Source: an uncultured bacterium | GTDB taxonomy: Bacteria; Bacillota; Clostridia; Oscillospirales; Oscillospiraceae | Length of the DNA stretch: 64,000 bases | Direction of reading: 5' to 3' | Assembly: GCA_947176765.1 (NCBI GenBank) | Contig: CAMWRX010000005.1 | Span: 3,771-67,770, forward strand | In this document: in pieces, positions 40,309 through 57,903 of the stretch | Numbering within the stretch: position 1 is the first letter of the stretch | How the letters are laid out: every line of letters starts with the position of its first letter | Made by a program: the position numbers and the translations under genes | Notes under the pieces: model-generated | The model's database searches: none | What the model saw: only the letters and a program-made list of their open reading frames with translations | What the model was told of the DNA's origin: nothing

Positions 40309-40312
40309 ATTG

Positions 40313-40780: not shown

Positions 40781-40784
40781 TTTG

Positions 40785-41716: not shown

Positions 41717-41750
41717 ATTGAACACTCCTCTCTGTTTTATCATGGCAGCC

Positions 41751-42158
41751 CTACTGCCCGTCTGGTGGCCGGGACAACCCCGCCATGATCATCTGCACAG
41801 CGGTGCGAAAGCCGGATTCATAGGCACGTCGCATATTATCGGAATTGCGCTCCGCCGCGGCGTCCAGATATGCTTCCAGTTCCTCCCGGTTCCGCTCAGG
41901 CAGCGTCTCTGCCAAGGTGTTATAGGCCCGCTTGACCGCCTGCTCCAGCTCGTTGGGCTCAGCAGTCTGCTTAAAAACCCCGCACTCGTAGTTTCCGAAA
42001 TAGAGCTCGGACAGGAAATTCGGGTCAGGCTCCACGGGCAAGACTGCTGCCCGCGGAGGTTTTTCCAATGCAGCAGTGAGGCCCTGAATGGATTGGATCA
42101 GCTGGGGCAGCTGATGCTCAAAAAACCTGCATCCCATTACAGTTTCGTGAAAATTCAT
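41751..42158 (-). CDS. Hypothetical protein
   Basis: GGAGGA RBS; MNFHET.MG.RFFE.QLPQL. Confidence 0.75.
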   Translation of the reverse strand: MNFHETVMGCRFFEHQLPQLIQSIQGLTAALEKPPRAAVLPVEPDPNFLSELYFGNYECGVFKQTAEPNELEQAVKRAYNTLAETLPERNREELEAYLDAAAERNSDNMRRAYESGFRTAVQMIMAGLSRPPDGQ

Positions 42159-42169
42159 GTCATGTCCTC

Positions 42170-42646
42170 CTATTTGTATTTCAGCACGGCCCCGATGTAA
42201 TAGTGGACGCCGGACTGGGCTTTGCGCAAAAACTCATCTAAAGGCGTGGGCGTCATGTCATTGCCCCACAGTACATAGTCGCCGTACTTCTGGGTAAATG
42301 CCTTGCCCAGATTGTCGATCAGCGCCGCCACCCAGTCATGGTCGTGGATAAATTGCGTTTCGTTCAGCTTCTGCAATGCCATCACCGCCTGCTGGAATGC
42401 CGCGAACCGGCCCTCAAAATGGCGGTCAGCGGCCTCCGTGTTAATGATAAACGCCTCGCCATCCAGAAGGCCCAGCTGCTTCTCCTCCAGCCACTTGCCA
42501 AAGCAAGCGATCACGTTCTCCCGGTCCTGCACTGCATTGACCCTCTCGGCGATGGGGAAGGTGCCGGGGCTCTCATTGAAATCGTACTCTGTGGTCCATT
42601 CGTCCGGCGGGGCCGGGGCCTGGAGCAATTCGTAAATATAGCTCAT
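42170..42646 (-). CDS. Hypothetical acidic protein
   Basis: GGAGG RBS, in operon. Confidence 0.75.
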   Translation of the reverse strand: MSYIYELLQAPAPPDEWTTEYDFNESPGTFPIAERVNAVQDRENVIACFGKWLEEKQLGLLDGEAFIINTEAADRHFEGRFAAFQQAVMALQKLNETQFIHDHDWVAALIDNLGKAFTQKYGDYVLWGNDMTPTPLDEFLRKAQSGVHYYIGAVLKYK

Positions 42647-42727
42647 GGTAAACCTCCAAAAATGCGGGGGACGGCTGTGCATTCAGCCATCCCCCTAAAA
42701 TAGTGCGGCGCATAAAGGCCCCCGGCC

Positions 42728-45268
42728 TCACGCGCACAACGTCTCATCGGCTCCTCCCGGCAGGCTTTTGTCTTGTTTCACCAGGAAGATATTTTTCTTA
42801 TAGCTGCCCTCCGAGGCGACCTCCGCCTTTCCGCCCAGGCTGTCCAGGTACTGCCCGCCGGCCTTGGACGCAGAAATATAGAGGTGCAGGCTGGTCTGGG
42901 CAAAGTCCCCCGCTGCCACCTCCCGGTAATCCAGGCTCAGCACCAGCTGGGCGCCCAGCATCTCAGCCTTCTGCCGAACCAGCTTCACAAACAGCGCTTT
43001 GATTTGCAGTGCGTCCTCCTGGTTCAGCCCGCTGCTGTAGGGATGCTCCAGAAACAGCGCCAGTCGTTCATCCTGATGCCGATCCTCCCAGGAGCCGCTT
43101 GCGGTCTCCAAGTCCACAAAGCTGAGCCTCCCGCCGATCCCCTTTCGGTTTTCCGCGGCTCCGCTCAGATTACACTTGGTCAGGCGGATGCAGGCACGGC
43201 CTACGATCCGGCCATCCTTTTCCGCATACAGCACCTTTTTGTTGGAATCAAAGCAGGCCAGCAGACTGCTGGCGTAAGCGCCGCCGCGGTAAGACAGGCA
43301 CGTTTCCTGGGGCTGTGTGCCCAGCTGCATGGTGGAGAAGAAATCGTCCCGCTCCCAGATTTCTGCATCGCCCTGGGTCAAGGAAAGGTTGTGTTTCCAC
43401 TCCACCTTTGCCTGGGTGTCCAGCGGGTAATCCAGCTCCTGCTCCAAGTCACCTGTGTGGTATTTCAGGTCGCTAAACTGTCCCATCAGCTCCGCCTTGA
43501 CCACGCGATGGAATGACGGATGCAGCTCCGGGTTCAGGCAATTCAGATACGTCCGGGCGATCCCAGCCCCATCCCGGCACAGGAACTTCACAATGTCCTC
43601 CTGGTACCGGGTCTTAAAGCCGGGGCTTAATTCCATGTCGTTCGCCAGAGTCTGCCAGTCTTGGTCCACTTCCAGCAAATTGGCCTTCAGCGCGTCAACG
43701 CTGTCAAAACGGTCAAGGTACTCCAAGCTGCGCAGCACCAGCATCACATCAGCCTGACACTGAATACCGGGGAGCAGGGGGCGCAGCTTGTCCAGGTGAA
43801 TCAGCAGCTGTGCGGCGTTCTCCGCCCGGATGTCCCGGATATGCCCCAATTCCTCCCGCCGCCAGTCGGCAAGGGGCTTTTGATCCAGCAGTCCGGCCAG
43901 CGTGGTCAATTCCTCCTCGCTGTCGATCTCATGCAGGACATTCCGTTTCCGCAGCTGGCGCAGTACTTTAATCCGGTCGTCCAACTTTGGTGTGCGCAGC
44001 TTGCTATACAGAACAGCGTAGGAATCGGGCACGTTATAGAGCAGCTTCAATTCAGCAAAGGTGTACTGGCGGTCACCAGCCAGCAGGGACTTGGGCTGCC
44101 CTTTCATTGTCATCCAGCCGCAGTCCTCCAGGTCTTTGGCCGTCAGCTCATTCAGATTGAAGTGGTCGCGATACAGCGGCTCATGGAACAGGATGGACCA
44201 TCTGGACAATCTCAGGAATTGATCCGTATGTTCATCCACCAGCCGGATAAAGTGCTTTTTGTCACGGGTGATGGCATAGAGCAAAAGCCTTTCCTGGAAA
44301 TCACTCAACCCATAAAGGGAAACATTCTTAAACCTGCTGCCATATATCAGGTTGATATACCCGGTGTAGCTGCCCATGGCCTTGTCCATATCCTCGGCAG
44401 AGGCTGTCCGCGTCCGGCGTTCCATGCGCTGAAGCTCGGACAGGGCGCAGTTATTTTCCCGCCAATGGTGCAGGAATCTGCCGGCGGCATCGGCCCCCGA
44501 CCGCTGGAGCACAAGAGACAGCAAGCGGAAATATTCATCCCCGTCTTCCGCGAAATACTGGTAATCTTTCAAAGAGAGATATTCCAAAACGCCCTTTTCA
44601 TGGATCGTCCGGGCGATGTCCGCCAGCGCGGGGGAAAACTGGAACAGGGCCCAGACATCCTCAAAATCCGCCGAAGCGAACAGATAGCGGGTGCCCACAA
44701 AGGGTTCGGCCAGCAGCTCCCGTCGACTGTCATCCAGGACAGCGGGGACTGCGGCACAGGCGGACAGGTTCTTTACGATCTGTGCCCGTCCTTCATCTTC
44801 CAGCTTTTTGGGTGCGAAGTTCTCCAGATAGGCCAGCCGCGCGCCCGCGGTCATGTCGATCTGTTTCAATACGAACAGCACATCCGCCTCCGGGTAGCCG
44901 GCGGCAGACTTTTCGTTGGCCCGGCAGACCTCCAGCAGCTTGTCCAGCCGCTGTTCCAGGTCGTTCCAGTCCGGCGGGCGGTTCTCCATTTCAACGCCTG
45001 CCGTTTCTTTTTCCGCGAGGGCCATCAGCCGGCCCAGCCAGGGGGCAAAACCAGGGTCGCAAATCAGTTCACGCTGAACGTTTTTAGGAAAACTGGCTGT
45101 GCAGTCCAGGTGCTCAACCATCCTGCTGCAGCACAGCAGGAGCTGTGACGGGGGAAGCTCCGCCGTCCAGGCCAGGTTCAGCTGAACCGCCTCCATCTGA
45201 AGGACGCAGGTGACACGCTCCCGCATCATGCGCCCAAGTTTATTTGTCGGGATCTCCGTCAGGGTCAT
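42728..45268 (-). CDS. Large hypothetical protein (846 aa), possible PcfJ/GNAT-like C-terminal domain
   Basis: Long ORF with GGAGGT RBS; C-terminal FFSTMQLG..ETCLSYRGG.Y...FDSNKKVL....GRIVGRACIRL. Confidence 0.85.
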   Translation of the reverse strand: MTLTEIPTNKLGRMMRERVTCVLQMEAVQLNLAWTAELPPSQLLLCCSRMVEHLDCTASFPKNVQRELICDPGFAPWLGRLMALAEKETAGVEMENRPPDWNDLEQRLDKLLEVCRANEKSAAGYPEADVLFVLKQIDMTAGARLAYLENFAPKKLEDEGRAQIVKNLSACAAVPAVLDDSRRELLAEPFVGTRYLFASADFEDVWALFQFSPALADIARTIHEKGVLEYLSLKDYQYFAEDGDEYFRLLSLVLQRSGADAAGRFLHHWRENNCALSELQRMERRTRTASAEDMDKAMGSYTGYINLIYGSRFKNVSLYGLSDFQERLLLYAITRDKKHFIRLVDEHTDQFLRLSRWSILFHEPLYRDHFNLNELTAKDLEDCGWMTMKGQPKSLLAGDRQYTFAELKLLYNVPDSYAVLYSKLRTPKLDDRIKVLRQLRKRNVLHEIDSEEELTTLAGLLDQKPLADWRREELGHIRDIRAENAAQLLIHLDKLRPLLPGIQCQADVMLVLRSLEYLDRFDSVDALKANLLEVDQDWQTLANDMELSPGFKTRYQEDIVKFLCRDGAGIARTYLNCLNPELHPSFHRVVKAELMGQFSDLKYHTGDLEQELDYPLDTQAKVEWKHNLSLTQGDAEIWERDDFFSTMQLGTQPQETCLSYRGGAYASSLLACFDSNKKVLYAEKDGRIVGRACIRLTKCNLSGAAENRKGIGGRLSFVDLETASGSWEDRHQDERLALFLEHPYSSGLNQEDALQIKALFVKLVRQKAEMLGAQLVLSLDYREVAAGDFAQTSLHLYISASKAGGQYLDSLGGKAEVASEGSYKKNIFLVKQDKSLPGGADETLCA

Positions 45269-46586
45269 CTCGCCTGACCTCCTTTATCTTTGAAATGTAC
45301 GACTGGAACTCTGTCCAGCCCAAAGTACCGCCTCGGATCAGTTCCCTACAAATGGCTAAAAACCGGTCAGCCTCTTTGGAGGACAGGACATACCCATTAT
45401 TCTGGAGCAGTTCCTCCATGCCATCGCATACCACACGGTGCGCGACAGGCTCTTTGTTATTATAATAACGGTATTTATTCAAATATCTGGCGATAGATTC
45501 AAAGGTGCCGTTGTTGGTTTCGGCGTAGCAGGTTTCGATCTCCTGGACCATCTCCAAATGTTCCTGCCGCTTTCTTTCCGCTTCCGCCGCCTCTTTGGCT
45601 TCCTGCTCCGCCTGCTGTTCCTCCGGCGTCAGGTAACGCCGTTTCAGCTGGTTGGCATCGTAGGCAGACAGCTTCGATTGGGTTATCAGCACATCAAATA
45701 TCCCCCGCTGATCCTCGGGCAGAAGCAGCGCGGCCACTTGTTCATTTTCCAGTACGGCCTGCGCGAAGTCGAGGTAACGTCCGGGCTTTATGGTGAAGAA
45801 ATACTCATCTACCCAGTGGAGCAGCAGCCGCTGTCCTTCCGGGTCGTCCGCCAGAAAGTCCCTTTGGAGATTGAGGGTGATCGTTTCACCGCCATAGCCC
45901 TTTTGTTCCCACAGCTCATGCTCAAATCCGGCAGAATTCCGGCCAAAATATGAGTTCATGCCCGGATACCCATACTGGTGCAGGAACCGTTTCAAAAATT
46001 CAAACGCTTGGATCGTTTCGATATTGCGGCAATAGTCCTTGATGTGATGCATCAGGGAGGCATCCGATACGCTTCCATCCTCGGCCAGACAGCTCTGGAA
46101 CGCCGTCCACAGGTCGATAATGCCCGCCTTTACCAGAAGGTGGAACTTGCCGGCGTATGCGTTCTCGCTATACCGATCTGTGTAATTTTTCCCGGTGAGC
46201 GCGTGGTAGCGGTCCAGCCGTTCCTGAACCTGTGCGGCGTCCATTTTCTCGGTCAAACAGCCTTCAAACAGTTTTTGGTATTGCTCCTTATCCAGGCTGC
46301 CGGCCAGGGAATTCCACTTGGAATCCATGATGTCAAAATTGATGGTGGCCGGGTGCAGGGCTTCGCCGCTGCAGCGGATGAACCAGGCCATAGTCTCGGG
46401 GACCTGGATGCGCAGGCCGCCTTTCAGCGTCTCAACCAGCCGGTGTTCCCCATAGCACTTGACGTCAAAGGTCGAATACATCTGATAGACCTGGGTGAGC
46501 TGCGGGTAGACCTCGGCGGGCAGGGGCTTGTCACAGGCCAGCACAGTACGGAACAGTCCCACGATCAGTTGAAAACTTGCGCTCAC
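45240..46586 (-). CDS. Hypothetical protein (448 aa)
   Basis: GTG start overlapping the upstream stop (GTGA); 3' end overlaps the start of the 846-aa gene; charged coiled-coil-like segment EEQQAEQEAKEAAEAERKRQE. Confidence 0.8.
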   Translation of the reverse strand: MSASFQLIVGLFRTVLACDKPLPAEVYPQLTQVYQMYSTFDVKCYGEHRLVETLKGGLRIQVPETMAWFIRCSGEALHPATINFDIMDSKWNSLAGSLDKEQYQKLFEGCLTEKMDAAQVQERLDRYHALTGKNYTDRYSENAYAGKFHLLVKAGIIDLWTAFQSCLAEDGSVSDASLMHHIKDYCRNIETIQAFEFLKRFLHQYGYPGMNSYFGRNSAGFEHELWEQKGYGGETITLNLQRDFLADDPEGQRLLLHWVDEYFFTIKPGRYLDFAQAVLENEQVAALLLPEDQRGIFDVLITQSKLSAYDANQLKRRYLTPEEQQAEQEAKEAAEAERKRQEHLEMVQEIETCYAETNNGTFESIARYLNKYRYYNNKEPVAHRVVCDGMEELLQNNGYVLSSKEADRFLAICRELIRGGTLGWTEFQSYISKIKEVRRDDPDGDPDK

Positions 46587-46819
46587 CCATGGTCTGACGC
46601 CCTCCGTGCGCAGTCTGGGCATTTGATGAGGTCGCTGGATTGCATAAGCGTTATGTAATTCTCACGTCCCACGGCATTATGCAGACAGTGTGAGCAGAAG
46701 TTTTTGCCGCAGACCTCACAGCTCCAGATCTCGCCATGGGTGTCTGTTTGCTCCTCCCAGCCCAACTCAACTCCGCAAAAATCACAAACATATTTGTCTG
46801 TTTCCTTGCGGTATGACAT
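46583..46819 (-). CDS. Small zinc-finger protein (4 x CxxC)
   Basis: CDFC, CEVC, CSHC, CPDC; GGAGGTG RBS. Confidence 0.8.
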   Translation of the reverse strand: MSYRKETDKYVCDFCGVELGWEEQTDTHGEIWSCEVCGKNFCSHCLHNAVGRENYITLMQSSDLIKCPDCARRASDHG

Positions 46820-46897
46820 TTTTGCTCACCTCCATAAAGTGAGTGCGTCATGAAGCCATTTGGCCCCATGACGCACCCTTGTAAGTTTCACAGCCGA

Positions 46898-47113
46898 TCA
46901 TGCCGCCGTTTTTCCGGCATTGGCCTGAACGGACCTTTCAAAATAGTCCTTTACGGTAAAGGGCACAGCCGCCACCCGCCAGTTTTTTGGCTTTGGCTGT
47001 CCGGCCCGCACCTTTTCCAGCAGCGGGCGGTTTGCCGAGACGGCATACCGCATCCAGCAATAGCGTGGGCAATGCCCGGTTTTGAGCAGCACTTTTCGTT
47101 CCAGCGCATACAT
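46898..47113 (-). CDS. Small basic hypothetical protein
   Basis: GGAGGTG RBS directly after the YkgJ-like gene. Confidence 0.6.
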   Translation of the reverse strand: MYALERKVLLKTGHCPRYCWMRYAVSANRPLLEKVRAGQPKPKNWRVAAVPFTVKDYFERSVQANAGKTAA

Positions 47114-47116
47114 CGC

Positions 47117-47779
47117 TCACACCTCCCCCAGCTTTTGCCGGAGGAGCCGCTCCAATGCCGCCATATTTGCTTTGTACTGCGGCATGAAGGGCTTGTCCAG
47201 GTCGTAACTGTAGTAACGGTAATGGAGTATCTGGAACAGACTGGCTCGGAGCTCGCCGGCACCCAGGCTGCTCAGCAGGCGGCCCAGGATGGGCAGAGTA
47301 TTGCCTTCAGCAGCCCAGAACTCCCGGTTCTCCCTGGTGAAATTCTCACGGAGCCAGTCCTTCACCTGTATCCGGTCACCGGAAAAATGACCCGCGTGCT
47401 GGTCCACACAGCGATAGAACTCAAAGACTCTCCCCCGCTGTCCGGGCCGCACACTAAACGGGTATATCCGGCAAACATGGGGCCTGCCCTCATAGACAGA
47501 GCACCGGCCATCCTTCAAAAAGACGCAGGCGTGGTCTGGCCCCTCCGTGTTCATCGTGTAAATAGGCAGATAGCCCTCCAACATATCGGTGTGGGCGTAC
47601 CGCGTGTACACATCGTCAATAGAAGTGACCTCGCCCCGCTCACGGAGCAGCCGGGCCAGGTGATAGGCGTCCAGTGGCTCCAGCATAAGCTGGTTCTCCA
47701 AATCCCGGCAGCAGTTACCGCACAGCTGACAGCGGAACGTGACCCAATCCTTGGGCCGCACAGGTTCGGCGCGGTTCAT
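47117..47779 (-). CDS. YkgJ-family (CxxCxxCC) Fe-S/Zn cluster protein
   Basis: FRCQLCGNCC, ACVFLKDGRCSVYEGRPHVCRIYPF; ATGA overlap with upstream gene. Confidence 0.88.
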   Translation of the reverse strand: MNRAEPVRPKDWVTFRCQLCGNCCRDLENQLMLEPLDAYHLARLLRERGEVTSIDDVYTRYAHTDMLEGYLPIYTMNTEGPDHACVFLKDGRCSVYEGRPHVCRIYPFSVRPGQRGRVFEFYRCVDQHAGHFSGDRIQVKDWLRENFTRENREFWAAEGNTLPILGRLLSSLGAGELRASLFQILHYRYYSYDLDKPFMPQYKANMAALERLLRQKLGEV

Positions 47780-48627
47780 GCGGCATCTCCCTTTATGCCC
47801 AGCGCACGGTAGACAGCCTCCCGGCTCTGACCGCACTCCTCCCCGGTAGCGCCGCTCTGGGTTATGGTGGCATAGTCCAGACGGATCGTACCAGCGGTGA
47901 TGCGTCCAAAGGTACAACCATCCAGCGTGGCCCCCGCAAAGTCCACACCATCCATGGTACAGTCAATGGTAGAGCAGGTTTTCAGTTTTGCCGTTTGCAG
48001 CATTACGTGAGACAGCTCACAATCATGGAAGTGGGTGTGGGCCAGTACAGAGCCACAGAGATCCACATAATTCAGGACAGACGAATAGAACTTCGTGTCG
48101 TAGATGTGGCTGGACACAAACGACGCGCTGGTGATCCGGCACACGGCAAATTTGCAGCCGTGGAGCTCAGAACCCAGGAAGTCCGCGAACTTGGGCAAAC
48201 AATAGAAGGTCACCCCGTCAAAATAGGACTCCCGGAAGAAATCCGGGGGAAAACCATCCTTGGCCGCCCGGTCATACAGTCTTTGGTCTACGAATTTTAA
48301 TGTGCGGTTTTCCATGCCCTTGCGCCGTTCAAACGCATAGCGTCTTCCATTCCAACGCTTATCGTAGATCTGGGACAGCAGTTCCTTCTGCCGCTGGAAA
48401 TTCCGGATATCCTGGAGCAGCGGCGTGATCTGCTCGCCACACTTTTCCAGTTCAGCCAGCAGTTCATCCGCAGTTCGCGCGGACCGTCCCTGTAAGATGT
48501 TATTGATAGCCCGAAGCGCATGAACCCGCTCACCAAACTGATATTCCTGGTGGGCGGCAGCCTCCAGGCTGTCCGCAATACGCTGGCTGAGTTCTGTTCC
48601 GCTGGGCACCGCTTTGTAATCGTTCAT
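47776..48627 (-). CDS. Pentapeptide-repeat-containing protein
   Basis: ADFLGSELHGCKF, VDLCGSVLAHTHFHDCELS, VDFAGATLDGCTF repeats in the C-terminal half. Confidence 0.8.
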   Translation of the reverse strand: MNDYKAVPSGTELSQRIADSLEAAAHQEYQFGERVHALRAINNILQGRSARTADELLAELEKCGEQITPLLQDIRNFQRQKELLSQIYDKRWNGRRYAFERRKGMENRTLKFVDQRLYDRAAKDGFPPDFFRESYFDGVTFYCLPKFADFLGSELHGCKFAVCRITSASFVSSHIYDTKFYSSVLNYVDLCGSVLAHTHFHDCELSHVMLQTAKLKTCSTIDCTMDGVDFAGATLDGCTFGRITAGTIRLDYATITQSGATGEECGQSREAVYRALGIKGDAA

Positions 48628-48701
48628 AGGGAAACCCCTTTCATAAAAAATGGGAGCGCCAAAGGACCGTTACAGTCCTCTGGCGCTCCTTCCAGTGTGT
48701 A

Positions 48702-48941
48702 TCAGGCGGCCATGGCCATGGGGAACCGGCACGTGGTCGGCTCATAGGTGGGGCCGGTCAGCAGGTGCAGCTGATAAGTGGTGTTCAGCGTCTCGAAGCA
48801 CACTTTCTCCTCGGTGACGCTGTGGATCGCCACCACACGGGAGGTGCGCACAAGGTCGTCCCCGTGCAGGAACACGGCCTTGGCCCCGACAGACAGCGGA
48901 CGGAGCAGCACACCCTCCAGAATCCTCTTTGCTTTAGTCAT
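48702..48941 (-). CDS. Small hypothetical protein
   Basis: GGGAGA RBS, in operon. Confidence 0.65.
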   Translation of the reverse strand: MTKAKRILEGVLLRPLSVGAKAVFLHGDDLVRTSRVVAIHSVTEEKVCFETLNTTYQLHLLTGPTYEPTTCRFPMAMAA

Positions 48942-48960
48942 GACATGATTCTCCCTTCTG

Positions 48961-49473
48961 CTAAATATATGGGTGAACGAAAACTTCTCGCAGCTCGTTC
49001 AAAAGCCTGCGGGCCTTCTTGACGCCCATGCCCTGAGACCGCGCGGCCTCCGCCGTGGAACAGCCCCGCAAGCGCATCAGCGCCAGCCGATGCTGTTCCT
49101 CGCTGGCCCCGGCCATCAGGTCATGGAAAATCAGCTGGGTTTCCAGTTCCTCGTAGAGGTTGGGCTGTCTGGCCCGTGGGTCGTCCAGATACCGCCGCTC
49201 CGCGTTCCGGCGACGCTCCTCTGTTCTGTGGTCGGTTGAAACACCCCGGCCCATGGCCCTCCAAGCCACGGTGGGGAACGCATACCGCCTCAGCCACGGC
49301 TGGGTGAGATACCGCTGTACCGCCTGGAGAAAGCCCAGGGCGGCGGCGTCATAGTATTCGGCGGCGCTGTGGCCTGTTTCTTTGAGAAAGGCATAGACCA
49401 GGCCATGGTGCTGCTCCGCAAAGCGCCGCTGTTCCTCCGTGAGAGGGGCCAGCGGAGCGGGCTGCCCCCGCAC
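48961..49473 (-). CDS. Sigma-70/ECF-like sigma factor
   Basis: LTEEQRRFAEQHHGLVYAFL...YYDAAALGFLQAVQRY (region 2); RLRGCSTAEAARSQG (region 4). Confidence 0.8.
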   Translation of the reverse strand: MRGQPAPLAPLTEEQRRFAEQHHGLVYAFLKETGHSAAEYYDAAALGFLQAVQRYLTQPWLRRYAFPTVAWRAMGRGVSTDHRTEERRRNAERRYLDDPRARQPNLYEELETQLIFHDLMAGASEEQHRLALMRLRGCSTAEAARSQGMGVKKARRLLNELREVFVHPYI

Positions 49474-49515
49474 ATAGGGCGGGAACAGCCTGCTCTGCTT
49501 TTCGACCAGCCGGAT

Positions 49516-50337
49516 TCAGGCGGGCAGGAGTTCCCGCTCGCCGTCCACCAGACCGCCCACAGCAAAGTGGCCGTCGTTGTCCGGCAGATCCAGCGGCTCC
49601 CCGGTGGTGGGGATGGTGCCCGCTGTCTCCTGCTCTTGGATCTGCTTCTCCAGCGCGGCCTTGACCATGGCGCGGAAGTTCTCGGCGTATGCCTTGACAC
49701 CTTCCAGCTCCTCGCCGGCGAAGTCCCGGACCCTGTTGAAGACGGCCACGCTGTAGTCGAAGCCGTTGCTGCTCACCGGCTTCAGCGTGATCTTCACCAG
49801 ACTGCCGTACACGGGGCGGCGGCGCAGGGCGAAAGCCATGTTGACGAAGTTCTTGAAGGGCTTGATGCTCGTGGGCGGCAGGGCCAGCTGCAGGGGGATG
49901 GGGTCCTCGCTGCGCAGGATGTAGAGCATCCTCATGTTTTTGCACAGCTTCCCCTTGCCGCTGGTACCGAACTCGTTGTAGCCGCACTCGGCGCACAGCA
50001 GGCCGGGGTCGCCGCAGCCCTGCTTGCCGTCCAGGGACTGGCACTGGGGCGGGGTGTTGTCGTCGTACTCGCTGCCCTCCGGCCAGTAGGCGTTGGCGGA
50101 GTGGTTGAACAGGATGATACCCTCGATCTCACCGACATAGGTGGGGTGGTCCGGGTCCTCACCCGGCATCTTGAACTGGGGCACGCCGCCGCCGGGGATC
50201 TTCACCCGGGGGAAGGAGAGCTCCAGGCCCTCCAGATCCTCCGCCACGTCGGCGGCGTCGAAGCCCTCATCCATGGGGGCGGGAAGCATAAAGGTGTCGC
50301 GCTCGGCGATGGCGGTGTTGTTCTGCTGGTTACTCAT
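49516..50337 (-). CDS. Phage-type putative ssDNA-binding/recombination protein with Zn site and acidic tail
   Basis: FPRVKIPGGG, CQSLDG, CAEC..NEFG.....CKNMR, LPPTS; acidic C-terminus; GGAGGA RBS. Confidence 0.7.
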   Translation of the reverse strand: MSNQQNNTAIAERDTFMLPAPMDEGFDAADVAEDLEGLELSFPRVKIPGGGVPQFKMPGEDPDHPTYVGEIEGIILFNHSANAYWPEGSEYDDNTPPQCQSLDGKQGCGDPGLLCAECGYNEFGTSGKGKLCKNMRMLYILRSEDPIPLQLALPPTSIKPFKNFVNMAFALRRRPVYGSLVKITLKPVSSNGFDYSVAVFNRVRDFAGEELEGVKAYAENFRAMVKAALEKQIQEQETAGTIPTTGEPLDLPDNDGHFAVGGLVDGERELLPA

Positions 50338-50383
50338 AATCTGTTCCTCCTAAATAAAGTGATATTTGTCACAGTGACCGCCG

Positions 50384-51472
50384 TTACGCGGCCATGCTTG
50401 CAACCTGGTTGATCTGCCGGAACATAGCCGGAGGCATGGTCATGACGTTGTAGCCGATGACCTCCAGCTTGCTGGCCCTGTCGTAGTCCTCCACGTCCTG
50501 GCTGTACCGGGTAACGGCGTTGGCCAGCCCATAGAGGGTGTAATCCGCGTCCTCCAACAGATGCTGGAGCACGCCTTTGCCTTCCGCATCGGTGAGGCCG
50601 AAATTGCTGCTGGTGAGCTTGACCACGCTGGGGATGTCGGTGGTGTCCAGCCTGGCCTGGGTGCTTTCCCTCATGGTGTCCAACACCCTGGCAAACCGGG
50701 CTTCGTCCACCGCCGCTTTCACCGTGTCCTGGACCTTCATCATGAACGCCTTGCCGTCCTGGTCCAGCGTCTCCTGGGAATACAGCGCGAAGTTTTCATC
50801 GGTGCTGTTGGCCCGGCCCACGTGGTTGCGGCGTGTCCGTGTGCTGGCGTCGTTGACCACCATGCCGTTGAGACAGGCCAGACGGTAAATCAGAGGCTGG
50901 ACGTTCACCGCCCCCAGGCCGGTCTCGCTGTTGGAGATGACCACGCCCGCCTGCACCACGTCGCCCACGCGCACCTCGCCGGTGAGCTTGGGGTTGACCA
51001 CCTTGATGTACATATAGTTTTCGGTGACCTGAGTGCTCTCAAACCGCGCGCCGGGCATCCCCATGATGATGGGCAGCACCGCCTGGGCGATCTCGAAGTT
51101 GTCGATGCACCGGTAGCGGTTGCTGAGAAATGCCCTGGCCCTGCCGTCAATGGTGCGCAGCAGGCGCTGGGTGGGTTCCCCCTTGTGGAGCCAGCGGTTG
51201 ACGTTATCGGCCAGCAGGCCGGGCTCCTCCTGGAGCATCCGCTCGTAATACTTCCAGGGGATGTTCAGGTGGGCGCCGATCTGACGGTGGGCCGTCTCCT
51301 GGATTTCCAGAGGCTCCATCTGATCCACGCCGCCCTCAACGACCCGAAGCATGGGTACACGGCCCGTCGAGTCCATCTCCATGCTGAGCGGGTTCACCAG
51401 ATAGTCCGCTTTGGCGGCGGCCTGACGCTCGATCTCCGCCGCCATCTCGGTGATAGTCAGTCCGGTTTTCAT
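50384..51472 (-). CDS. DUF932/DUF945-like protein
   Basis: RARAFLSNRY..IDN, GVVISNSETGLGAVNVQPLIYRLACLNGMV, LYGLANAVTRY. Confidence 0.8.
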   Translation of the reverse strand: MKTGLTITEMAAEIERQAAAKADYLVNPLSMEMDSTGRVPMLRVVEGGVDQMEPLEIQETAHRQIGAHLNIPWKYYERMLQEEPGLLADNVNRWLHKGEPTQRLLRTIDGRARAFLSNRYRCIDNFEIAQAVLPIIMGMPGARFESTQVTENYMYIKVVNPKLTGEVRVGDVVQAGVVISNSETGLGAVNVQPLIYRLACLNGMVVNDASTRTRRNHVGRANSTDENFALYSQETLDQDGKAFMMKVQDTVKAAVDEARFARVLDTMRESTQARLDTTDIPSVVKLTSSNFGLTDAEGKGVLQHLLEDADYTLYGLANAVTRYSQDVEDYDRASKLEVIGYNVMTMPPAMFRQINQVASMAA

Positions 51473-51486
51473 TCCGCTCCCCCTTT

Positions 51487-52251
51487 CTACCAGGAAACGG
51501 CAATGTGGTCGGCCTGTACGTCGGCGGACAGCCCTTCCTGGGCCAGCGTATCGGCCAGACGGGGCCAGTACACCTTTTCCGGGAACGCGGCAAAAGCGTG
51601 CTTTGTGGTTTTGCTGCTGCCCGCTTCCGGCTGGAAGGAGATACTGCCGTCCTCGTTCAGCGTGAGGCTGCTGTGGCCCCTGGAGCGCAGGTCGGCGATC
51701 AGCGTGTCCAGCACGCCCCTGCCCTCCAGCTCATACCACACCGATGGATCGGGAGACGGACCGGACGGTGCGCCCTGTCCATTGTCCTGCACCGGGACGA
51801 TCTTCACCAGGGAGCAGCTGAGGCTGCCCTTCTGATCCAGCGTCACGTCGGCGTACTCGTAATCCGGCACGCCGTAGAGCCGGATGCGGCCTGTACCGCC
51901 ATGGGCGATAAACAGCTCCGGGTCGTTCATGGTCCACTCCCAGCGCGCGTTCGGGTAAGCGCTTTTCAGGTAGTCCGAGATGCGGTAGTTCACATGGCAC
52001 AGCAGGAGTTTCACCACATTTACAGTGGAGAGCGCTTCCTGCTCCTGGGCAATCCGCTCCTCCCGGCTGCGATAGGCACGGTTGGCCCGCCACGCGGGGC
52101 GCAGGAGGGTGAGCACCACCCAAAGGCCCCAGAGGGCGAACGTGACCAGCAGCAGGACGGTCTGGGCCGGGCCGCGCAGCAGGGCCAGGATGGCGATGAC
52201 CGCGCCGATCAGGATAGAGGTGCTGCTTCCGAGGGAAATCTTCTGTTTCAT
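51487..52251 (-). CDS. Hypothetical protein with two N-terminal TM helices
   Basis: ILIGAVIAILALL / VLLLVTFALWGLWVVLTLL; AAAGGTG RBS. Confidence 0.75.
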   Translation of the reverse strand: MKQKISLGSSTSILIGAVIAILALLRGPAQTVLLLVTFALWGLWVVLTLLRPAWRANRAYRSREERIAQEQEALSTVNVVKLLLCHVNYRISDYLKSAYPNARWEWTMNDPELFIAHGGTGRIRLYGVPDYEYADVTLDQKGSLSCSLVKIVPVQDNGQGAPSGPSPDPSVWYELEGRGVLDTLIADLRSRGHSSLTLNEDGSISFQPEAGSSKTTKHAFAAFPEKVYWPRLADTLAQEGLSADVQADHIAVSW

Positions 52252-52359
52252 TTGGTTTGCCACCTTTCTTTTTTCTGGACAACAAAAAAAGAGGCGCTGC
52301 TCCAAGTCCAGAAATCTTCTGAAACGTTGGAAACAGCGCCTCTTTACTTGTGCCGGATC

Positions 52360-52758
52360 TCACTCCGGCAGGTCTTCCCGCTCCCCGTCAACAGTTTCTG
52401 GGAATGGGATGTCTTTGGCCTGATCGGGCCTGCGCTCCTGCCGTTGTCCGGCAGGGACAAAGCCCCAGTCCTTCAGCTTGAGCTTCAGCCGCTTGTCATG
52501 GGTCACACCATCTTTTTTGGTGTACTCCTCCAGCTCCAGGGAACCGGACACCCACAGTGCGCTGCCTTTGCCCACACCCTCACTGATCAGCTGACGCACC
52601 ATAGCGCCCCAGGCCCACACCGAGACATACTGTGTGTGGGCGCTGCTGCCATACCCGATGCGCTCGGCAATGGGGAAGCAGAGATAGGGCACGTTTTTCT
52701 GGCTTGTCTTCAGCTCCAGTTCGGACATGACCCGGCCTGTGCAATACAGTTGGGACAT
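52360..52758 (-). CDS. ssb: Single-stranded DNA-binding protein
   Basis: TGRVMSELELKT, YVSVWAWG, GKGSALWVSGSL, acidic tail IPFPETVDGEREDLPE. Confidence 0.88.
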   Translation of the reverse strand: MSQLYCTGRVMSELELKTSQKNVPYLCFPIAERIGYGSSAHTQYVSVWAWGAMVRQLISEGVGKGSALWVSGSLELEEYTKKDGVTHDKRLKLKLKDWGFVPAGQRQERRPDQAKDIPFPETVDGEREDLPE

Positions 52759-52769
52759 AGCTCTCCTTT

Positions 52770-53014
52770 CTGCCTGTTCAGGCTAAAATATATATATAAA
52801 AAGAGCCAGAGGGCAGACTGATCCCCTAACAGCATAGGGGCCAGCTTTCCACCGGCTCTTGCGTACAAACCCCGGGAGTGCCGTACTGCTCCCCCGCCGC
52901 TTCCTGGGCAGGGGCCGACATTTCCCGTAACGTGTGCAATGCGAAACTGATCGCTCCCAGACTGAAAAATCAGCCTGCCCTCTGAAAAGAGGAAACGCAC
53001 ATAGAATCAATTAC
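52770..53014 (-). ncRNA. Candidate structured 5' leader / attenuator upstream of ssb
   Basis: Terminator-like stem 52860-52801 plus U-tract; 16-nt long-range pairing 52984-52969 with 52822-52807; local hairpin with 52965-52958. Confidence 0.55.
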
Positions 53015-53020
53015 AAGGGG

Positions 53021-53049
53021 ATTGTACCACAAGATGCCGTGCCTGTCAA
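53021..53049 (-). promoter_or_regulatory. Near-consensus sigma70 promoter for the ssb operon; perfect palindrome ACAATATATTGT at 53060-53071 just upstream
   Basis: Minus strand TTGACA-17nt-TACAAT with TG extension. Confidence 0.85.
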
Positions 53050-53121
53050 CCATAAATGTACAATATATTGTGTTTTATTTTTCTCGACACACAAAATCTT
53101 GCGTCGCTCGTGTGGCTGGCA

Positions 53122-53361
53122 TCAGCATTGCACAAACAGCCCTACCGGGCATACATTTTCATAGCCAGAGGTGGATATGTACCAACAGGCCGGGCCAGTT
53201 TGTTCCCAGGCAACTTCCAATGTAATATCATGCCATCCATCCGGGAACAGGGCCTGGAAGCAGCTCCCGGCATGGATACCATATCCGTCCAGGAGTAGAC
53301 GGGGGTGTGGGTCGTGGTCTTCAGGGGCGGGGAGTTTAAGCTGACTGATCTTTTTGTTCAT
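53122..53361 (-). CDS. DUF5348-like small protein
   Basis: LDGYGIHAG.CFQALFPDGWHDITLE; GGAGGA RBS. Confidence 0.7.
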   Translation of the reverse strand: MNKKISQLKLPAPEDHDPHPRLLLDGYGIHAGSCFQALFPDGWHDITLEVAWEQTGPACWYISTSGYENVCPVGLFVQC

Positions 53362-53581
53362 GATGATTCCTCCTATCACGGTTAAATGCCTACACTATAA
53401 TAAATAGGGCGCGGCTGCCGCCTTTTACACATCCAGAAAAAATTTTTACTTCTTTCCGCGCGACAGCTCATGATGCAGCCAAATTCACAGGAAACAGTCG
53501 TATATCAATTCGTAATGGTTGCTTTTTCCGTTCTGACCATATATAATGTCAAGGTAGTCAATCATATAAAGGGTGGTTACC

Positions 53582-53914
53582 ATGGACAGGAAGAATAAAG
53601 CAACTGGCGCTGGCACCGACCAGGAGGGCAAAAAGAAGCCCGGCAGAAAGCCTATGACTGATGCGGAAAAAAAGGCCGCCGCAAAGGCGCGCGCAGAAGA
53701 AAAGTCAAAGGCCGCAAACCTCAAGCCGGAAGTCATTGTGCAGTTCCAGGACGTCGAAGCCGATGTAACAGCCTTGATTGAGGAAGCCAAGGCCGACTTC
53801 CATAAAACCAAAAAGCGTACTTTGGTCACCGATATGAAGCTGTACGTGAAACCGGAGGAGCGCGCGGCCTATTATGTGATCAATGGAGAGCATACCGGAA
53901 GCGTTTCCTACTGA
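53582..53914 (+). CDS. DUF6465-like protein with Lys/Ala-rich N-terminus
   Basis: KKKPGRKP..AEKKAAAKA; EVIVQF...MKLYVKPEERAAYYVING. Confidence 0.8.
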   Translation: MDRKNKATGAGTDQEGKKKPGRKPMTDAEKKAAAKARAEEKSKAANLKPEVIVQFQDVEADVTALIEEAKADFHKTKKRTLVTDMKLYVKPEERAAYYVINGEHTGSVSY

Positions 53915-53949
53915 TCTGCTTGACCCTGCTGCTGTTTCGCGTTTGGAAA

Positions 53950-53996
53950 ACAGGCGGGCGCTGCCAGCACTAGCTGACAGCGCCCGCTGTCTTTTT
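53950..53996. terminator. Terminator between convergent genes
   Basis: GCGGGCGCTG / CAGCGCCCGC with flanking A and T runs. Confidence 0.7.
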
Positions 53997-54684
53997 ACAC
54001 CCGCTCAAAGATGATCTGTTTACGCAGATACAGGTTGGCCACGGCGATGGTGACAGGCACCAGCTGCTCCGCCTGAAGCATCTCAAAGGCAATACTGTCG
54101 CTGGTTGTGTAGTCGTTGTCAATGAGGGCGTCCATGAGCTTTTCCTCGGTGGAAATATCCGTCGCCCCAACCTCGGCGCACTTGATAAGCTCGGCGGTGG
54201 ACAACAAGGCTTGCCGGGACAGGGCCATCACCTGGGTCTCCCGCTCGTTCAGCTTGTCCTTCCGGAACAACTGCTTCGCCTTGGAAAAGGGTACACCCCC
54301 CAGCAAAAGTTTCCCAAAGGTGAGAAGCCGCAGGGACAGGCTCTCCGAAACAGGAACGACATACAGTTCCCCCAGCAGATCATATAGCGCCTCAAAATCT
54401 GTGTCGCCGCTGCCCCGGACAATCAGGCCCCGCATCTCCAGCCGGTTGAGGCAGGTATCCAGCGTCCGTCGGGCGGAAGGAAGATCCTTTGCCATCTGGT
54501 CATACTTTGCCTCGATCTGCTCCATGCGTAGGAACCGCCAGTTAAGGATCGTCCAAACCGCCATCTCTTGGATGTCCACAATATGCTCCTCCTGGTTTAC
54601 CAGGATCACAGGATAGGAGCGCCCAGCCCCATCTGTCTTGTGGCGAAAATGGCCCACTGCGGTGTAGTAAGTGTTCGTTTTCAT
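53995..54684 (-). CDS. Hypothetical protein (element backbone)
   Basis: GGAGG RBS; 229-aa ORF. Confidence 0.8.
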   Translation of the reverse strand: MKTNTYYTAVGHFRHKTDGAGRSYPVILVNQEEHIVDIQEMAVWTILNWRFLRMEQIEAKYDQMAKDLPSARRTLDTCLNRLEMRGLIVRGSGDTDFEALYDLLGELYVVPVSESLSLRLLTFGKLLLGGVPFSKAKQLFRKDKLNERETQVMALSRQALLSTAELIKCAEVGATDISTEEKLMDALIDNDYTTSDSIAFEMLQAEQLVPVTIAVANLYLRKQIIFERV

Positions 54685-54859
54685 AATATCGCCTCCATGT
54701 TTCTTGTTAAGATAGCCATATACTACCTTTTACAAACGCCGCATCCCGTTTTCAACAAGCGAAGCGATTTTTCCCGAAGCAAGGCGACTCATTGACTCTT
54801 GATAGAGGCCAGGAGACCACGGAATCCAATCCCATTGTTCCGATCACAACCGTAAACAG

Positions 54860-54904
54860 AGAAAAGGTACAGTCTCTTTGGATAAAGGAAACTGTACCTT
54901 TTCT
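54860..54904. terminator. 14-bp perfect inverted repeat, terminator-like
   Basis: AGAAAAGGTACAGT / ACTGTACCTTTTCT. Confidence 0.7.
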
Positions 54905-55023
54905 TTTCTATCGAAAGATTTTGTATTCTCCAAAGCCTATCTGTAGATATGGCAGATAAATTACTGCCGAATTTAGAATGGAATGAAATCCATTATGACC
55001 CTGGAACCAGTCCGGCAGAAAGA

Positions 55024-55308
55024 TCAGAGCTTTTCCTTCAATTCTTTACGCCTTTCCTCAAGCAGACGATTCAATTCTTCTAAGTCCTCTGATTTGAGTG
55101 CGCGCTGATATATGTAGCAAAATCGTCTTAGGCGGCAGTCATCCTTGCCGCATCCCTTCATCCCCCAACAGCTTCCCCCAAAAAACCTGTACTGTATAAC
55201 AAGGTTAGGGCATTTGATTTCTATGATAAAATCAATAATGGCTGGAACTATCATTACAGCCAGCACAAGCAAAGCAATTAACATGAGTATAATATCAGTA
55301 AAGTTCAT
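55024..55308 (-). CDS. Small membrane-anchored protein with Cys cluster (AT-rich)
   Basis: N-terminal TM; CWGMKGCGKDDCRLRRFC; GGGAG RBS. Confidence 0.55.
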   Translation of the reverse strand: MNFTDIILMLIALLVLAVMIVPAIIDFIIEIKCPNLVIQYRFFGGSCWGMKGCGKDDCRLRRFCYIYQRALKSEDLEELNRLLEERRKELKEKL

Positions 55309-55402
55309 ACCTATTCTCCCTTCAGGAAGTTCCGATAGCACGGGCCAGCGCTGTCGCTTGTTCCTGCACCTTTGCACAGAGAGTACGTTGGGCATTACCC
55401 TT

Positions 55403-56278
55403 TCAGAAGTCAACAAACTCTGTCCCAGCCTGGGCAGTCAGGGAAAGAAGCCGTTCAGGCGAACTGTGAAGCTCCACTTCCAGGCCCATTGTATGTAGGA
55501 ATCTCCCAAAGCCGTCGTTCAACCCAACCTGTTCCGCCAGATTGTGCTGGGCGGCATATTCTGGGTGATGGTGATAGACAGCGTTCATAAGCGCAGCCCA
55601 GTTAATCTCACAATACAGCCGCTCCTTACGCATATCGGACAACAGCTCAAAAAGTGGGACACAGCTGTCCGACTCCTGGAAAAACAGATAGGCCGGGACG
55701 TGTTCGCTTAAGTCGTTGTCGTACCGCTCCGCTAATCCTCTTGCACCATCTGACAAGTCATCGTATATCGGACCGGCTATCGCCAGCCCCCGCTGGCATT
55801 GCTCTGTCTCCAGCCAGTACAGGCCGTTGGCGATGATCTTATGCCGGGTGGTGTAACCCCATGGGGTCAGGAGAGGTACAGGGTAGTTGCCAAAATACTC
55901 CGGGTACATCTCGGCCCCAATGGTGGCTATGCTACGGATGCTTTCGCCCTCCGGCAGGGCAAGCTGGTGCAAGACCCTGTAGCGGAACAGTTCGTAGCCG
56001 ATGATATACCGGCTGTTACCTGTACTGTCCTCCATATATATCAAAAACTCCGGATAATCAGGGGCAGACTTCCCGTACCTTTTAGCCATATCTGAAATTT
56101 CTACAGCGCTTCTGAGTACGACAAAGCCTTCTGCCGCTACACCTGTTTCTGAGCTCTCCAGAATAACATCATACACACCGGGCATGACGAGGGTGGCCTC
56201 AGTTACCACACCCAGCTCCCCTAAGTCCAAGGGCAGGTTCGCTGAAGACAACAGTTGTGTTTCTTTATCCATGACCAT
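55403..56278 (-). CDS. Hypothetical protein
   Basis: About 291-aa ORF from ATG 56278 with GAGG RBS. Confidence 0.75.
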   Translation of the reverse strand: MVMDKETQLLSSANLPLDLGELGVVTEATLVMPGVYDVILESSETGVAAEGFVVLRSAVEISDMAKRYGKSAPDYPEFLIYMEDSTGNSRYIIGYELFRYRVLHQLALPEGESIRSIATIGAEMYPEYFGNYPVPLLTPWGYTTRHKIIANGLYWLETEQCQRGLAIAGPIYDDLSDGARGLAERYDNDLSEHVPAYLFFQESDSCVPLFELLSDMRKERLYCEINWAALMNAVYHHHPEYAAQHNLAEQVGLNDGFGRFLHTMGLEVELHSSPERLLSLTAQAGTEFVDF

Positions 56279-56325
56279 AACCAACCTCTTCTTCTCCACT
56301 GATTTTCCTCTGCGTTTACTATAGC

Positions 56326-56349
56326 ATATTGTGGCTATAATCACAATAT
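56326..56349. promoter_or_regulatory. Operator-like inverted repeat in the divergent region upstream of two HTH genes
   Basis: ATATTGTG-N8-CACAATAT, with TATAAT in the spacer. Confidence 0.55.
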
Positions 56350-56398
56350 CAAGATGATAAATATTCCCATATAATTTGCATATCAAATTATCGCGGGG

Positions 56399-56602
56399 AT
56401 GATTTCAGTGGTGGATTACAGCCCCTTATGGAAAACGATGCAAGTGCGTGGTGTAACACAATACCAGCTTTTGAAGTCTGGTATTGACAATAAAACCCTT
56501 GATTCCTTGAAGAAGAATAAAAACATCACCATGCTCACATTAGAAAAGCTGTGTGATATTATTGGGTGTACGCCAAACGATGTTGTGCAGTTTATAAAAT
56601 AA
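56399..56602 (+). CDS. Cro/C1-type HTH (HTH_26) regulator
   Basis: YSPLWKTM..RGVTQYQL...LEKLCDIIGCTPNDVV. Confidence 0.88.
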   Translation: MISVVDYSPLWKTMQVRGVTQYQLLKSGIDNKTLDSLKKNKNITMLTLEKLCDIIGCTPNDVVQFIK

Positions 56603-56821
56603 ATGAGACAGACCATTTACGACACAATAAGGAAAAACATCAGGAAGTATCGGAAGGAAAAGGGCATTACCTCTGCCCAGTTGACGGAGATGACTGGCCT
56701 TTCTCATGATTTCATCCGTCAGATACAGAGCGACAAGACCCGCTACAATTTTTCTGTGGAGACCTTCTACAAAATCTCTGTGGCGCTGGATGTGAGCATG
56801 GATACCCTGGCCGGTAAATGA
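56603..56821 (+). CDS. XRE-family HTH regulator
   Basis: KNIRKYRKEKGITSAQLTEMTGLSHDFIRQIQS. Confidence 0.85.
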   Translation: MRQTIYDTIRKNIRKYRKEKGITSAQLTEMTGLSHDFIRQIQSDKTRYNFSVETFYKISVALDVSMDTLAGK

Positions 56822-56869
56822 GAAAAAGGATCCTCCTGCGCTGCTGTTGGCACAGGAGGATCCTTTTCA

Positions 56870-57463
56870 TCATTGCGTCTGCTTTTTGCTCCACATCAAA
56901 ATATCTTTTCGCAGTTTTGCCTTTGCCCGAGAGACCCAAGCCCCTACGTTGTTGGGAGTTGTGCGGTACATCCGGGCAATGCTTGCCCCGCTCAGTCCCC
57001 TGATCTGCAGTTCCATTGCCTCCACACCCAGCCGGGCCACCCCGCTGTACCGGCGCTTGCAGTCGGCAAGCAGTTCGGCAGTATCCATCCGCTCCAACAG
57101 GTCGTCGATCCCATCCGGCACGGACGGTTCCAAGAACGGGGGCGGCTGGTCTTCATCAGAGCAGTCAATGTCCAAGGAAACTGACGGCAGCTTCCGCTGC
57201 CTGGTGTTGGCCTTCTTGCAGCAGTTATACAGGTGGTTTCGGATGACCGTGGTGGCATACGTACTGAATTGGGCGGACACCCCATCGTAGGTTGCCGCAG
57301 CTTTGCACAGCGCCATGGCCCCCTCCTGGTAGAGGTCGTCCTGCCCCAAACCCTCGACATCCTCATCGGGGTAGATAAAAAGATTGATGGTCTTACCGAT
57401 GACGGAAAGGTTGTCCTGCACAAGAATCTGCTGCTCGGGGGTAAGGATAAAATCGCACTTCAT
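56870..57463 (-). CDS. Sigma-70 family sigma factor
   Basis: LVQDNL..I, DDLYQEGAMALCKAAATYD...FSTYATTVIRNHL; C-terminal HTH. Confidence 0.88.
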   Translation of the reverse strand: MKCDFILTPEQQILVQDNLSVIGKTINLFIYPDEDVEGLGQDDLYQEGAMALCKAAATYDGVSAQFSTYATTVIRNHLYNCCKKANTRQRKLPSVSLDIDCSDEDQPPPFLEPSVPDGIDDLLERMDTAELLADCKRRYSGVARLGVEAMELQIRGLSGASIARMYRTTPNNVGAWVSRAKAKLRKDILMWSKKQTQ

Positions 57464-57498
57464 GATTTCGCCTTCTTTCTTATTTCATTTTTGTGCGG

Positions 57499-57903
57499 CT
57501 ATGCCGCCCGCTTGCCTGTTGTGAAAAAGCTGCCGCAAAGCCGGATAACCTGTTCGCAGCGAAACTCAGAAAATCTGCCGATGTGGGTTTCTTGCTCCGG
57601 CAGATCCAGCTTGGCCTGGAGCCAGAGGTATGCCTGTTTTTTGCTCATCAGCCCATTCTCCCACAGCCGGTTAAAAGCGGCATGGGCCTGGATGCGCTTC
57701 CGACGCAGTGGCCCGTTCGCTAGGGTGCCCATAGGCAGACAGGTGCGCCGGTGCGCGGCCACATAAGAGTCGCAGGCCGGAAAATGGGCACAGACATAAT
57801 AAGGGGCGGAAGGGTCTGCAGCCCGTTTCCCATATACCACAGAGGCTGAACGGAGCAGGGCACGGGAGCCACAGTAGGGGCACTTGATATTCACTCGTTT
57901 CAT
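57499..57903 (-). CDS. DUF3268-family zinc-finger protein
   Basis: CPYCG, YVCAHFPACDSYV.AH, PMGTLAN..LRRKRIQAH..F..LW, HIGRF...CEQVI. Confidence 0.85.
   Translation of the reverse strand: MKRVNIKCPYCGSRALLRSASVVYGKRAADPSAPYYVCAHFPACDSYVAAHRRTCLPMGTLANGPLRRKRIQAHAAFNRLWENGLMSKKQAYLWLQAKLDLPEQETHIGRFSEFRCEQVIRLCGSFFTTGKRAA

Follow-up and report, generated by a model that had tools for sequence, protein, structure and literature searches.

The putL and putR sites of phage HK022 give cis-acting processive antiterminator RNAs, put consisting of two stem-loops (~70 nt); nutL and nutR of lambda with N, and the lambdoid PR'-qut-tR' arrangement with Q, are promoter-proximal signals that head terminator-punctuated operons. 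To the authors' knowledge, few RNA-based antitermination devices have been described (put, EAR, conAn2, canT), and none of these has a well-defined fold that is conserved across many taxa. Among Gram-positive conjugative elements, cis-acting RNA antiterminators are known as canT of Tn916 (PMC11658703) and conAn2 of pLS20 (PMC8191782); canT is an orientation-specific RNA that lets transcription pass the insulating terminator T1 of Tn916 and later ones (PMC11658703). In the present work, the region before an ssb gene was analysed in a 64,000-nt stretch of DNA (the window) from an uncultured bacterium of the Oscillospiraceae (assembly GCA_947176765.1, contig CAMWRX010000005.1). A widespread, uncatalogued control cassette occurs in mobile elements of Oscillospirales (Clostridia), and the region analysed is one of its copies; the cassette probably decides whether the early genes of the element are transcribed. 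Its leader RNA belongs to an undescribed family and presumably governs termination in the mobile element. Coordinates are positions in the window; cassette and operon are read on the minus strand (Table 1).

Homologous leaders were collected from more than 40 loci: an SSB protein search gave 13 related Oscillospiraceae loci, and a 20-mer of the invariant 5' part gave 29 metagenome loci. A covariance model was built from 24 distinct cores, and pairs were counted on 43 sequences in an alignment fitted to the covariance model. Standard pairs were found in 96.6% of cells of the 43 homologs, vs 87.6% in shuffles and 29-55% in slid controls; compensatory changes on both sides were seen at 25/35 pairs, the observed pairing and covariation values were reached by 0/500 shuffles, and RNAalifold on an independent MAFFT alignment predicted the same structure. 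The RNA structure is under selection, as judged by comparison of these sequences. On the sense strand, G-U pairs are common as well as conserved (the P0 G-U in 43/43; 12 G-U at pair 45/89), so that the folded molecule is the transcript and not the template DNA strand. No Rfam 15 family matched at gathering thresholds over the whole window, in keeping with the undescribed status that had been supposed for this RNA; between 52600 and 53200 only chance-level miRNA/lncRNA matches were obtained (E = 2-10), and a literature search for a described family gave nothing specific.

A note made earlier from the window alone had proposed a cis-located structured RNA between promoter and ssb, and this RNA is indeed present, conserved, strongly covarying and ended by an intrinsic terminator; of the pairings in the earlier note, the local RNA fold was conserved and covarying in the homologous leaders, while the 16-nt long-range helix was neither conserved over its full length nor covarying. 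A folded single-stranded DNA signal next to ssb (Frpo-type promoter, single-strand origin or primosome site) had been offered as its alternative. The region is highly structured, and the ssb, DUF932 and pentapeptide-repeat genes resemble a conjugative leading region; such a signal is nevertheless scarcely credible here, as a canonical duplex promoter stands at a fixed distance from the conserved 5' end, its -35 and -10 boxes are in normal duplex DNA ahead of the folded part and not in a hairpin, the hairpin with U-tract is a transcription terminator, the conserved sense-strand G-U pairs would be A-C mismatches on the template strand, and the cassette also precedes integrase and recombinase genes.

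The TTGACA-17-TACAAT promoter was found where it had been placed (-35 box 53049-53044; 17-nt spacer; -10 box 53026-53021, with TG ahead of it); it is the best promoter-like site in 38000-57900 by promoter scan (11/12 positions matching). The palindrome noticed upstream of it is perfect. ATATAT-centred palindromes occur in nearly all homologs at the same place upstream of TTGACA, with a related element in the promoter spacer; these are operator-like, and a repressor may bind there. The 5' end predicted from sequence is a G that lies 6-7 nt after the -10 box in every copy and is followed by near-invariant UAAUUGAUU; the predicted transcript begins with invariant GUAAUUGAUU. Palindromes that flank and enter the promoter at fixed positions, an invariant initially transcribed sequence and a terminator ~100-215 nt downstream would also be expected of a DNA-binding factor of Q/AlpA type that joins polymerase at the promoter, with the ATATAT palindromes as possible loading sites; the leader RNA would then be mostly a by-product like the 6S RNA of lambda PR'-tR'. 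The strong covariation shows, however, that the RNA fold itself is selected, and no Q-, AlpA- or NusG-like protein was found among the ~38 window open reading frames (ORFs) scanned against Pfam; this explanation is quite improbable.

From the inferred start (G 53014) to the ATG of ssb (52758) the leader measures ~256 nt, close to the ~245 nt estimated before. It holds no convincing gene, as had been said: its two ORFs (96 and 75 aa) gave no Pfam match, and a leader peptide was rejected (relatives do not keep the AUG of the 5' tail, and loop indels put the frames out of register). In the folded part, P0 encloses the hairpins P1, P2 and P3 and a four-way junction is formed; P1 and P2 persist in folds of the growing transcript, i.e., they form early, and the fold of the whole leader gave z = -3.2. 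The junction is followed by conserved CGUU...(A/G)GUUUGUA(C/U)G and at once by a long hairpin with U-run. P4 (~57 nt) is inserted ahead of the 3' tail in the window's clade and is missing from distant homologs, which are ~95 nt long. Closure of the core by pairing of the 5' tail with the 3' tail was rejected (3 bp at most, without covariation). Two loci, L085 and L067, are without P2 or P3 and have a three-way junction, P0, both tails and the terminator being kept; the invariant strands may therefore matter more than the number of helices.

With the first covariance model the RNA was found in 18/401 genomes of the family; with a second one it was found in 14/401 genomes sampled across the order (~3-4%), seven of which belong to five other families, and in two more genomes from other parts of the class. 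Up to three copies occur per genome and many elements carry two. BLAST of leader plus ssb against plasmid and phage collections gave no match, nor did a 20-mer scan of viral contigs. All copies have the same layout: palindrome, promoter, 5' end, junction, 3' tail, long hairpin and U-run. Two unrelated-looking 3' terminator modules are found behind one and the same promoter and core in the window's clade. Class A has T1 as in the window, then ssb. In class B, T1 is a different one and is succeeded by a small hairpin and another long terminator (GCGGGAAUGACUG...CAGUCAUUCCCGCUUUUUU), then by genes for a ~50-aa Arg/Lys-rich ORF (MKYHAVWKPGGRPRRG...), a YqaJ-type exonuclease and a RecD2-like helicase (L022:2759-4324, also L018, L036, L065, L067, L070); xis and tyrosine integrase genes lie divergently upstream. 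Classes A and B were found together on three contigs, and in G266 two copies are divergent, 2.1 kb apart; the window's own genome has one copy only, and none of class B. In other genera the genes after the cassette are tyrosine-integrase-like (L050, L054, L063) or serine-recombinase-like (L049, L056), or form a DUF932 operon without ssb (L051, L052), the integrase and recombinase assignments resting on N-terminal residues only. The cassette is modular, one core standing ahead of different terminators and operons.

T1, seen in the earlier note as a terminator-like stem, is an intrinsic (Rho-independent) terminator: the hairpin is directly followed by UUUUUAUAUAUAUAUUUU (U5 run), compensatory changes occur within class A at three pairs (158-211, 170-199, 180-187), and nearly every homolog has a similarly long hairpin with U-run after the core. 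Of the leader's folds, the one with T1 is thermodynamically the ground state. The ribosome-binding site (RBS) of ssb (52766-52763) lies downstream of T1 and its U-tract; in the interval from T1 to the RBS no -35/-10 pair was seen by eye, and the promoter scan of the window lists none. Further strong terminators (T2, T3 and T4) stand in the operon, and no strong promoter was found downstream of any of them by the window scan. In class B and several other variants, two strong terminators stand in series between core and first gene, and these count against a single alternative-pairing switch, since such a switch acts only on the terminator with which it pairs. An RNA at +1, one cassette per operon, varied or tandem terminators and the lack of conserved alternative pairing fit cis antitermination better than a single switch.

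The reading tentatively preferred on this analysis, at a likelihood put somewhat short of even, is that the leader RNA acts in cis and controls read-through of T1 and later of T2-T4, as put, nut or canT would. The strong sigma-70 promoter, flanked by operator-like ATATAT palindromes, would start a transcript with GUAAUUGAUU; this RNA would fold into the P0-P3 junction (with P4 in the window's clade) and run via GGUUUGUACG straight into T1. The leader RNA would then act in cis on the transcribing polymerase, alone or with a protein of the element or host, and polymerases from the cassette promoter would read through T1 and later T2-T4 by processive antitermination of the kind known from put, nut, EAR, canT and conAn2. 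If the leader did not act, transcription would stop at ~52800 and give a leader RNA of ~215 nt. As in the put/EAR/canT-type class, a structured RNA lies between the operon promoter and the terminators to be passed. It is possible, if doubtful, that a new class of polymerase-modifying RNA in Gram-positive mobile elements is represented here, either self-sufficient and put-like or working with a protein half as in an N/nut-like system; in the latter case this protein could be the ~50-aa Arg-rich ORF that opens the class B operons of relatives.

Several points weigh against this. No partner protein was identified, and the Arg-rich class B ORF has no homolog in the window's own genome. The stems of T1, T2 and T3 are very long, and in pLS20 stems of at least 15 bp protect a terminator from conAn antitermination (PMC10325885). 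The internal terminators differ among relatives, and not every relative keeps them. Fitting of the 43-sequence alignment to the model biases the counts in favour of the structure. Promoter, structured RNA and strong terminator are also the anatomy of a stand-alone small RNA gene, and invariant junction nucleotides would suit a ligand- or protein-binding aptamer as well.

Taking up the last of these, the four-way junction would bind a small ligand or an RNA-binding protein, and some other rearrangement would control T1 only (riboswitch or protein-mediated attenuator). The junction strands and P0 are invariant and the helices variable and covarying, which is aptamer-like; the terminator follows directly, and no Rfam class matches. 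On the other hand, conserved complementarity from the core to either terminator arm is lacking, the 57-nt P4 can be inserted between junction and T1, many copies have two terminators in series, P2 or P3 is lost in some homologs, and metabolite control has no obvious logic for such varied mobile-element operons; an aptamer is unlikely. As to a stand-alone gene, promoter, core and T1 would give a ~215-nt RNA (~150 nt in relatives) acting in trans (immunity, copy control, decoy), with the downstream genes expressed by leakage. The strong promoter, the exact conserved 5' end, the very strong long-stem terminator and the conserved single-stranded tails agree with it, but a co-oriented gene with RBS was found ~40-350 nt past T1 wherever the downstream sequence sufficed (classes A to D), no promoter was seen between T1 and RBS in the sequences inspected, no antisense target for the conserved tails was found within the window, and there is one copy per operon, not one per element. 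A small RNA of this kind is distinctly unlikely.

Cis antitermination was further compared with the described devices, for put partly from the summaries in PMC11658703 and PMC8191782. The likeness to put lies in a structured RNA just downstream of early promoters, often in two copies per element, each heading a different operon, with terminators downstream, and in the action in cis on the polymerase that made the RNA (here predicted); sequence and structure similarity is absent, and the present RNA has a four-way junction with conserved tails instead of two stem-loops, a Gram-positive host and a long terminator fused directly to the RNA. canT is likewise a cis-acting RNA of a Gram-positive integrative element, with passage of terminators (here predicted); it is, however, 340-450 nt long, lies between orf8 and xis far from the promoter and has no defined conserved fold (PMC11658703), whereas the RNA described here is 95-155 nt long, starts at +1 and abuts the terminator (compared by description). 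In pLS20 the gene of the small protein ConAn1 comes first and is followed by the 260-600-nt conAn2; here ssb is first and the RNA is upstream of it. With the lambda systems the cassette shares signals repeated at operon heads and a short terminated leader RNA as default product (here predicted), and the Arg-rich ORF opening the class B operons of relatives recalls N. It differs from them in that no N, Q or Nus-type protein was identified and in that the Arg-rich ORF lies downstream of two terminators and is missing from the window's own genome; the 5' tail bears a weak, non-conserved likeness to boxA, and a boxA-like 5' tail was rejected (UUCUUUG in a few homologs only; deleted in L056).

If a new class of polymerase-modifying RNA is indeed represented here, one cassette per operon would license all early operons together (ssb/anti-defence, recombination, integrase or recombinase). 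The compact covarying fold, the fixed +1 position, the modular pairing with terminators and operons and the occurrence in several families of gut Clostridia make the cassette a tractable model of how mobile elements of uncultured gut anaerobes silence, and then jointly switch on, their early, anti-defence and recombination genes. Even if it works by attenuation or as a small RNA in trans, it is a new RNA family that deserves an Rfam covariance model, and the cassette is a useful marker for this class of mobile elements.

The earlier note had itself proposed a switch by alternative pairing: segment 52984-52969 would either stay in P1/P2, with T1 formed, or pair with 52822-52807, with T1 disrupted. 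The segments are present, the local partner being UCAGUCUG (52965-52958) and the long-range partner AUCAGUCUGCCCUCUG (52822-52807); the long-range helix has 16/16 pairs, one of them G-U, and the two folds are mutually exclusive as claimed, because both use 52822-52807. In the window, the duplex of the core with the T1 3' arm amounts to -35.2 kcal/mol (z = -3.3; 0/60 shuffled cores reach it), vs z = 0.01 for the core with the T1 5' arm. The central ten pairs (GAGGGCAGGC:GUCUGCCCUC) are invariant in 14/17 distinct class A leaders, the flanks being mostly broken; being invariant, they carry no covariation signal. The published device closest to this proposal is the zipper-type attenuator cATT of pLS20, by which pairing of upstream with downstream segments round a long central hairpin is shown to be workable (PMC13401043). 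Both are mobile-element operon leaders with an intrinsic terminator just ahead of the first gene and a long imperfect hairpin upstream of that terminator, and in both a segment from an upstream hairpin is complementary to the terminator. They differ in that the leader RNA studied here has its complement in the terminator's 3' arm, its upstream hairpins are strong and covarying (weak in cATT), P3 and the 3' strand of P0 lie between the segments, which do not flank the base of one central hairpin, the complementarity is seen in one clade only, and the first gene is ssb, not conAn1.

The variants found among homologs do not behave as a switch would lead one to expect. No compensatory change was found in the long-range helix among the 17 distinct class A leaders; pair 43-196 is a C-A mismatch in 7/17, each base still being paired in P2 and in T1. 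T1 of L030 has a compensatory GC-to-UA change that removes two long-range pairs, and the change of CCCUC to CCCAC in L002, L029 and L042 gains a T1 pair and loses a long-range pair; these changes serve T1 and break the long-range helix. The local hairpins P1 and P2 are stable and covarying (e.g., CAGGC/GCCUG to CGGGC/GCCCG in L029 and L042). Above-chance complementarity of core and terminator was limited to the window and L041, L033, L019 and L025; it was missing in L002, L042, L030, class B and every distant homolog. AGUCUGCCC is seen again in T1 of distant homologs with cores that have no complement to it, and is paired there with T1's own 5' arm. When forced, the long-range fold is a multiloop with the P2 3' arm, P3, the P0 3' strand, P4 and the T1 5' arm between its segments, and it is less stable than the fold with T1 by 5.5 kcal/mol in the window and by as much as 23 kcal/mol in L002. 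Its target, the T1 3' arm, emerges last, with its own 5' arm already adjacent, so that the long-range helix cannot form before the T1 hairpin.

In the same clade, the 8-mer GUCUGCCC, which complements invariant GGGCAG(G/A)C at the P1/P2 junction, was found in the class B T1 of 6/10 distinct sequences (L022, L024, L026, L028, L034, L036). It lies there in the poorly paired apical part and in a different arm than in class A. Its recurrence speaks for the switch, its absence from the other 4/10 and from all distant homologs against it. Clade-limited, without compensatory change, energetically costly and aimed at the last-transcribed arm of T1, the proposed switch is unsupported and very improbable; as far as sequence comparison goes, the 16-nt complementarity is a feature of one shallow clade and would be at most accessory, not the working switch. 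A DNA-inversion switch on the 16-bp inverted repeat was rejected as well, all of the more than 40 homologous loci being colinear, without inverted allele.

Table 1. Position of cassette and operon features in the window (energies in kcal/mol).
Feature	Position	Strand	Remarks
Palindrome, perfect, operator-like, ACAATATATTGT	53060..53071	.	upstream of -35 box
Promoter TTGACA-17-(TG)TACAAT	53021..53049	minus	sigma-70-type; -35 and extended -10 in all homologs
Inferred transcript 5' end and single-stranded 5' tail, GUAAUUGAUUCUA	53002..53014	minus	near-invariant in 43 sequences
Four-way junction P0-P3	52933..53001	minus	RNAalifold and pair counts; -29
P0	53001-52996 with 52938-52933	minus	UGUGCG:UGCACA, invariant
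P1	52993-52978	minus	changes on both sides in 6/7 pairs; -5.9
P2	52977-52958	minus	changes on both sides in 6/6 pairs; -10.4
5' segment of the earlier proposed switch, CAGAGGGCAGGCUGAU	52969..52984	minus	P1 3' arm and P2 5' arm, inside two covarying local hairpins
P3	52954-52941	minus	changes on both sides in 4/4 pairs
P4, long imperfect hairpin, optional in family	52872..52928	minus	-28; covaries in window's clade
Single-stranded 3' tail, conserved, GGUUUGUACG	52862..52871	minus	(A/G)GUUUGUA(C/U)G in nearly all homologs
T1, long intrinsic-terminator hairpin	52801..52860	minus	-35; 3' arm 52822-52807 is the 3' segment of the earlier proposed switch
U-tract and AU-rich run, UUUUAUAUAUAUAUUUU	52784..52800	minus	from sequence
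Small hairpin GCC-N6-GGC, then RBS GGAG	52763..52783	minus	hairpin kept with sequence changes in homologs
ssb, first gene after cassette	52360..52758	minus	Pfam SSB, E = 1.5e-10
T2, hairpin with A-tract and U8 run, directly after ssb	52288..52345	minus	-33.7; also in L003, L041
T3, 17-bp hairpin then UUUUUU, inside operon	48653..48689	minus	-32.4
T4, 12-bp hairpin then U-run, inside operon	42666..42695	minus	terminator/promoter scan

Class A copies from different genera (L053, L055, L060, L078 and L085 among them) keep UUUUUAUAUAUA(G)AUAU after T1. This AU-rich run resembles the ATATAT palindromes of the promoter and could therefore be a third operator, a terminator enhancer or an RBS enhancer. 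T2 overlaps the called TTG start of a 272-aa ORF (51487-52305), the true start of which is probably the downstream MKQKISLG. Besides SSB, the minus-strand operon encodes a pentapeptide-repeat protein and a DUF932 protein (47776-48627, 50384-51472); genes of this sort are typically found in anti-defence or leading regions of conjugative elements. At 31945-32859 there is a ParM-like gene. Two small proteins resembling XRE-type helix-turn-helix (HTH) proteins and a sigma-70-like protein are encoded ~3.5 kb upstream of the cassette (56399-56821, plus; 56870-57463, minus), the HTH reading being made from residues alone and the Pfam scan covering, of these proteins, the sigma-like one only; they are candidate regulators that may act at the operator-like palindromes.

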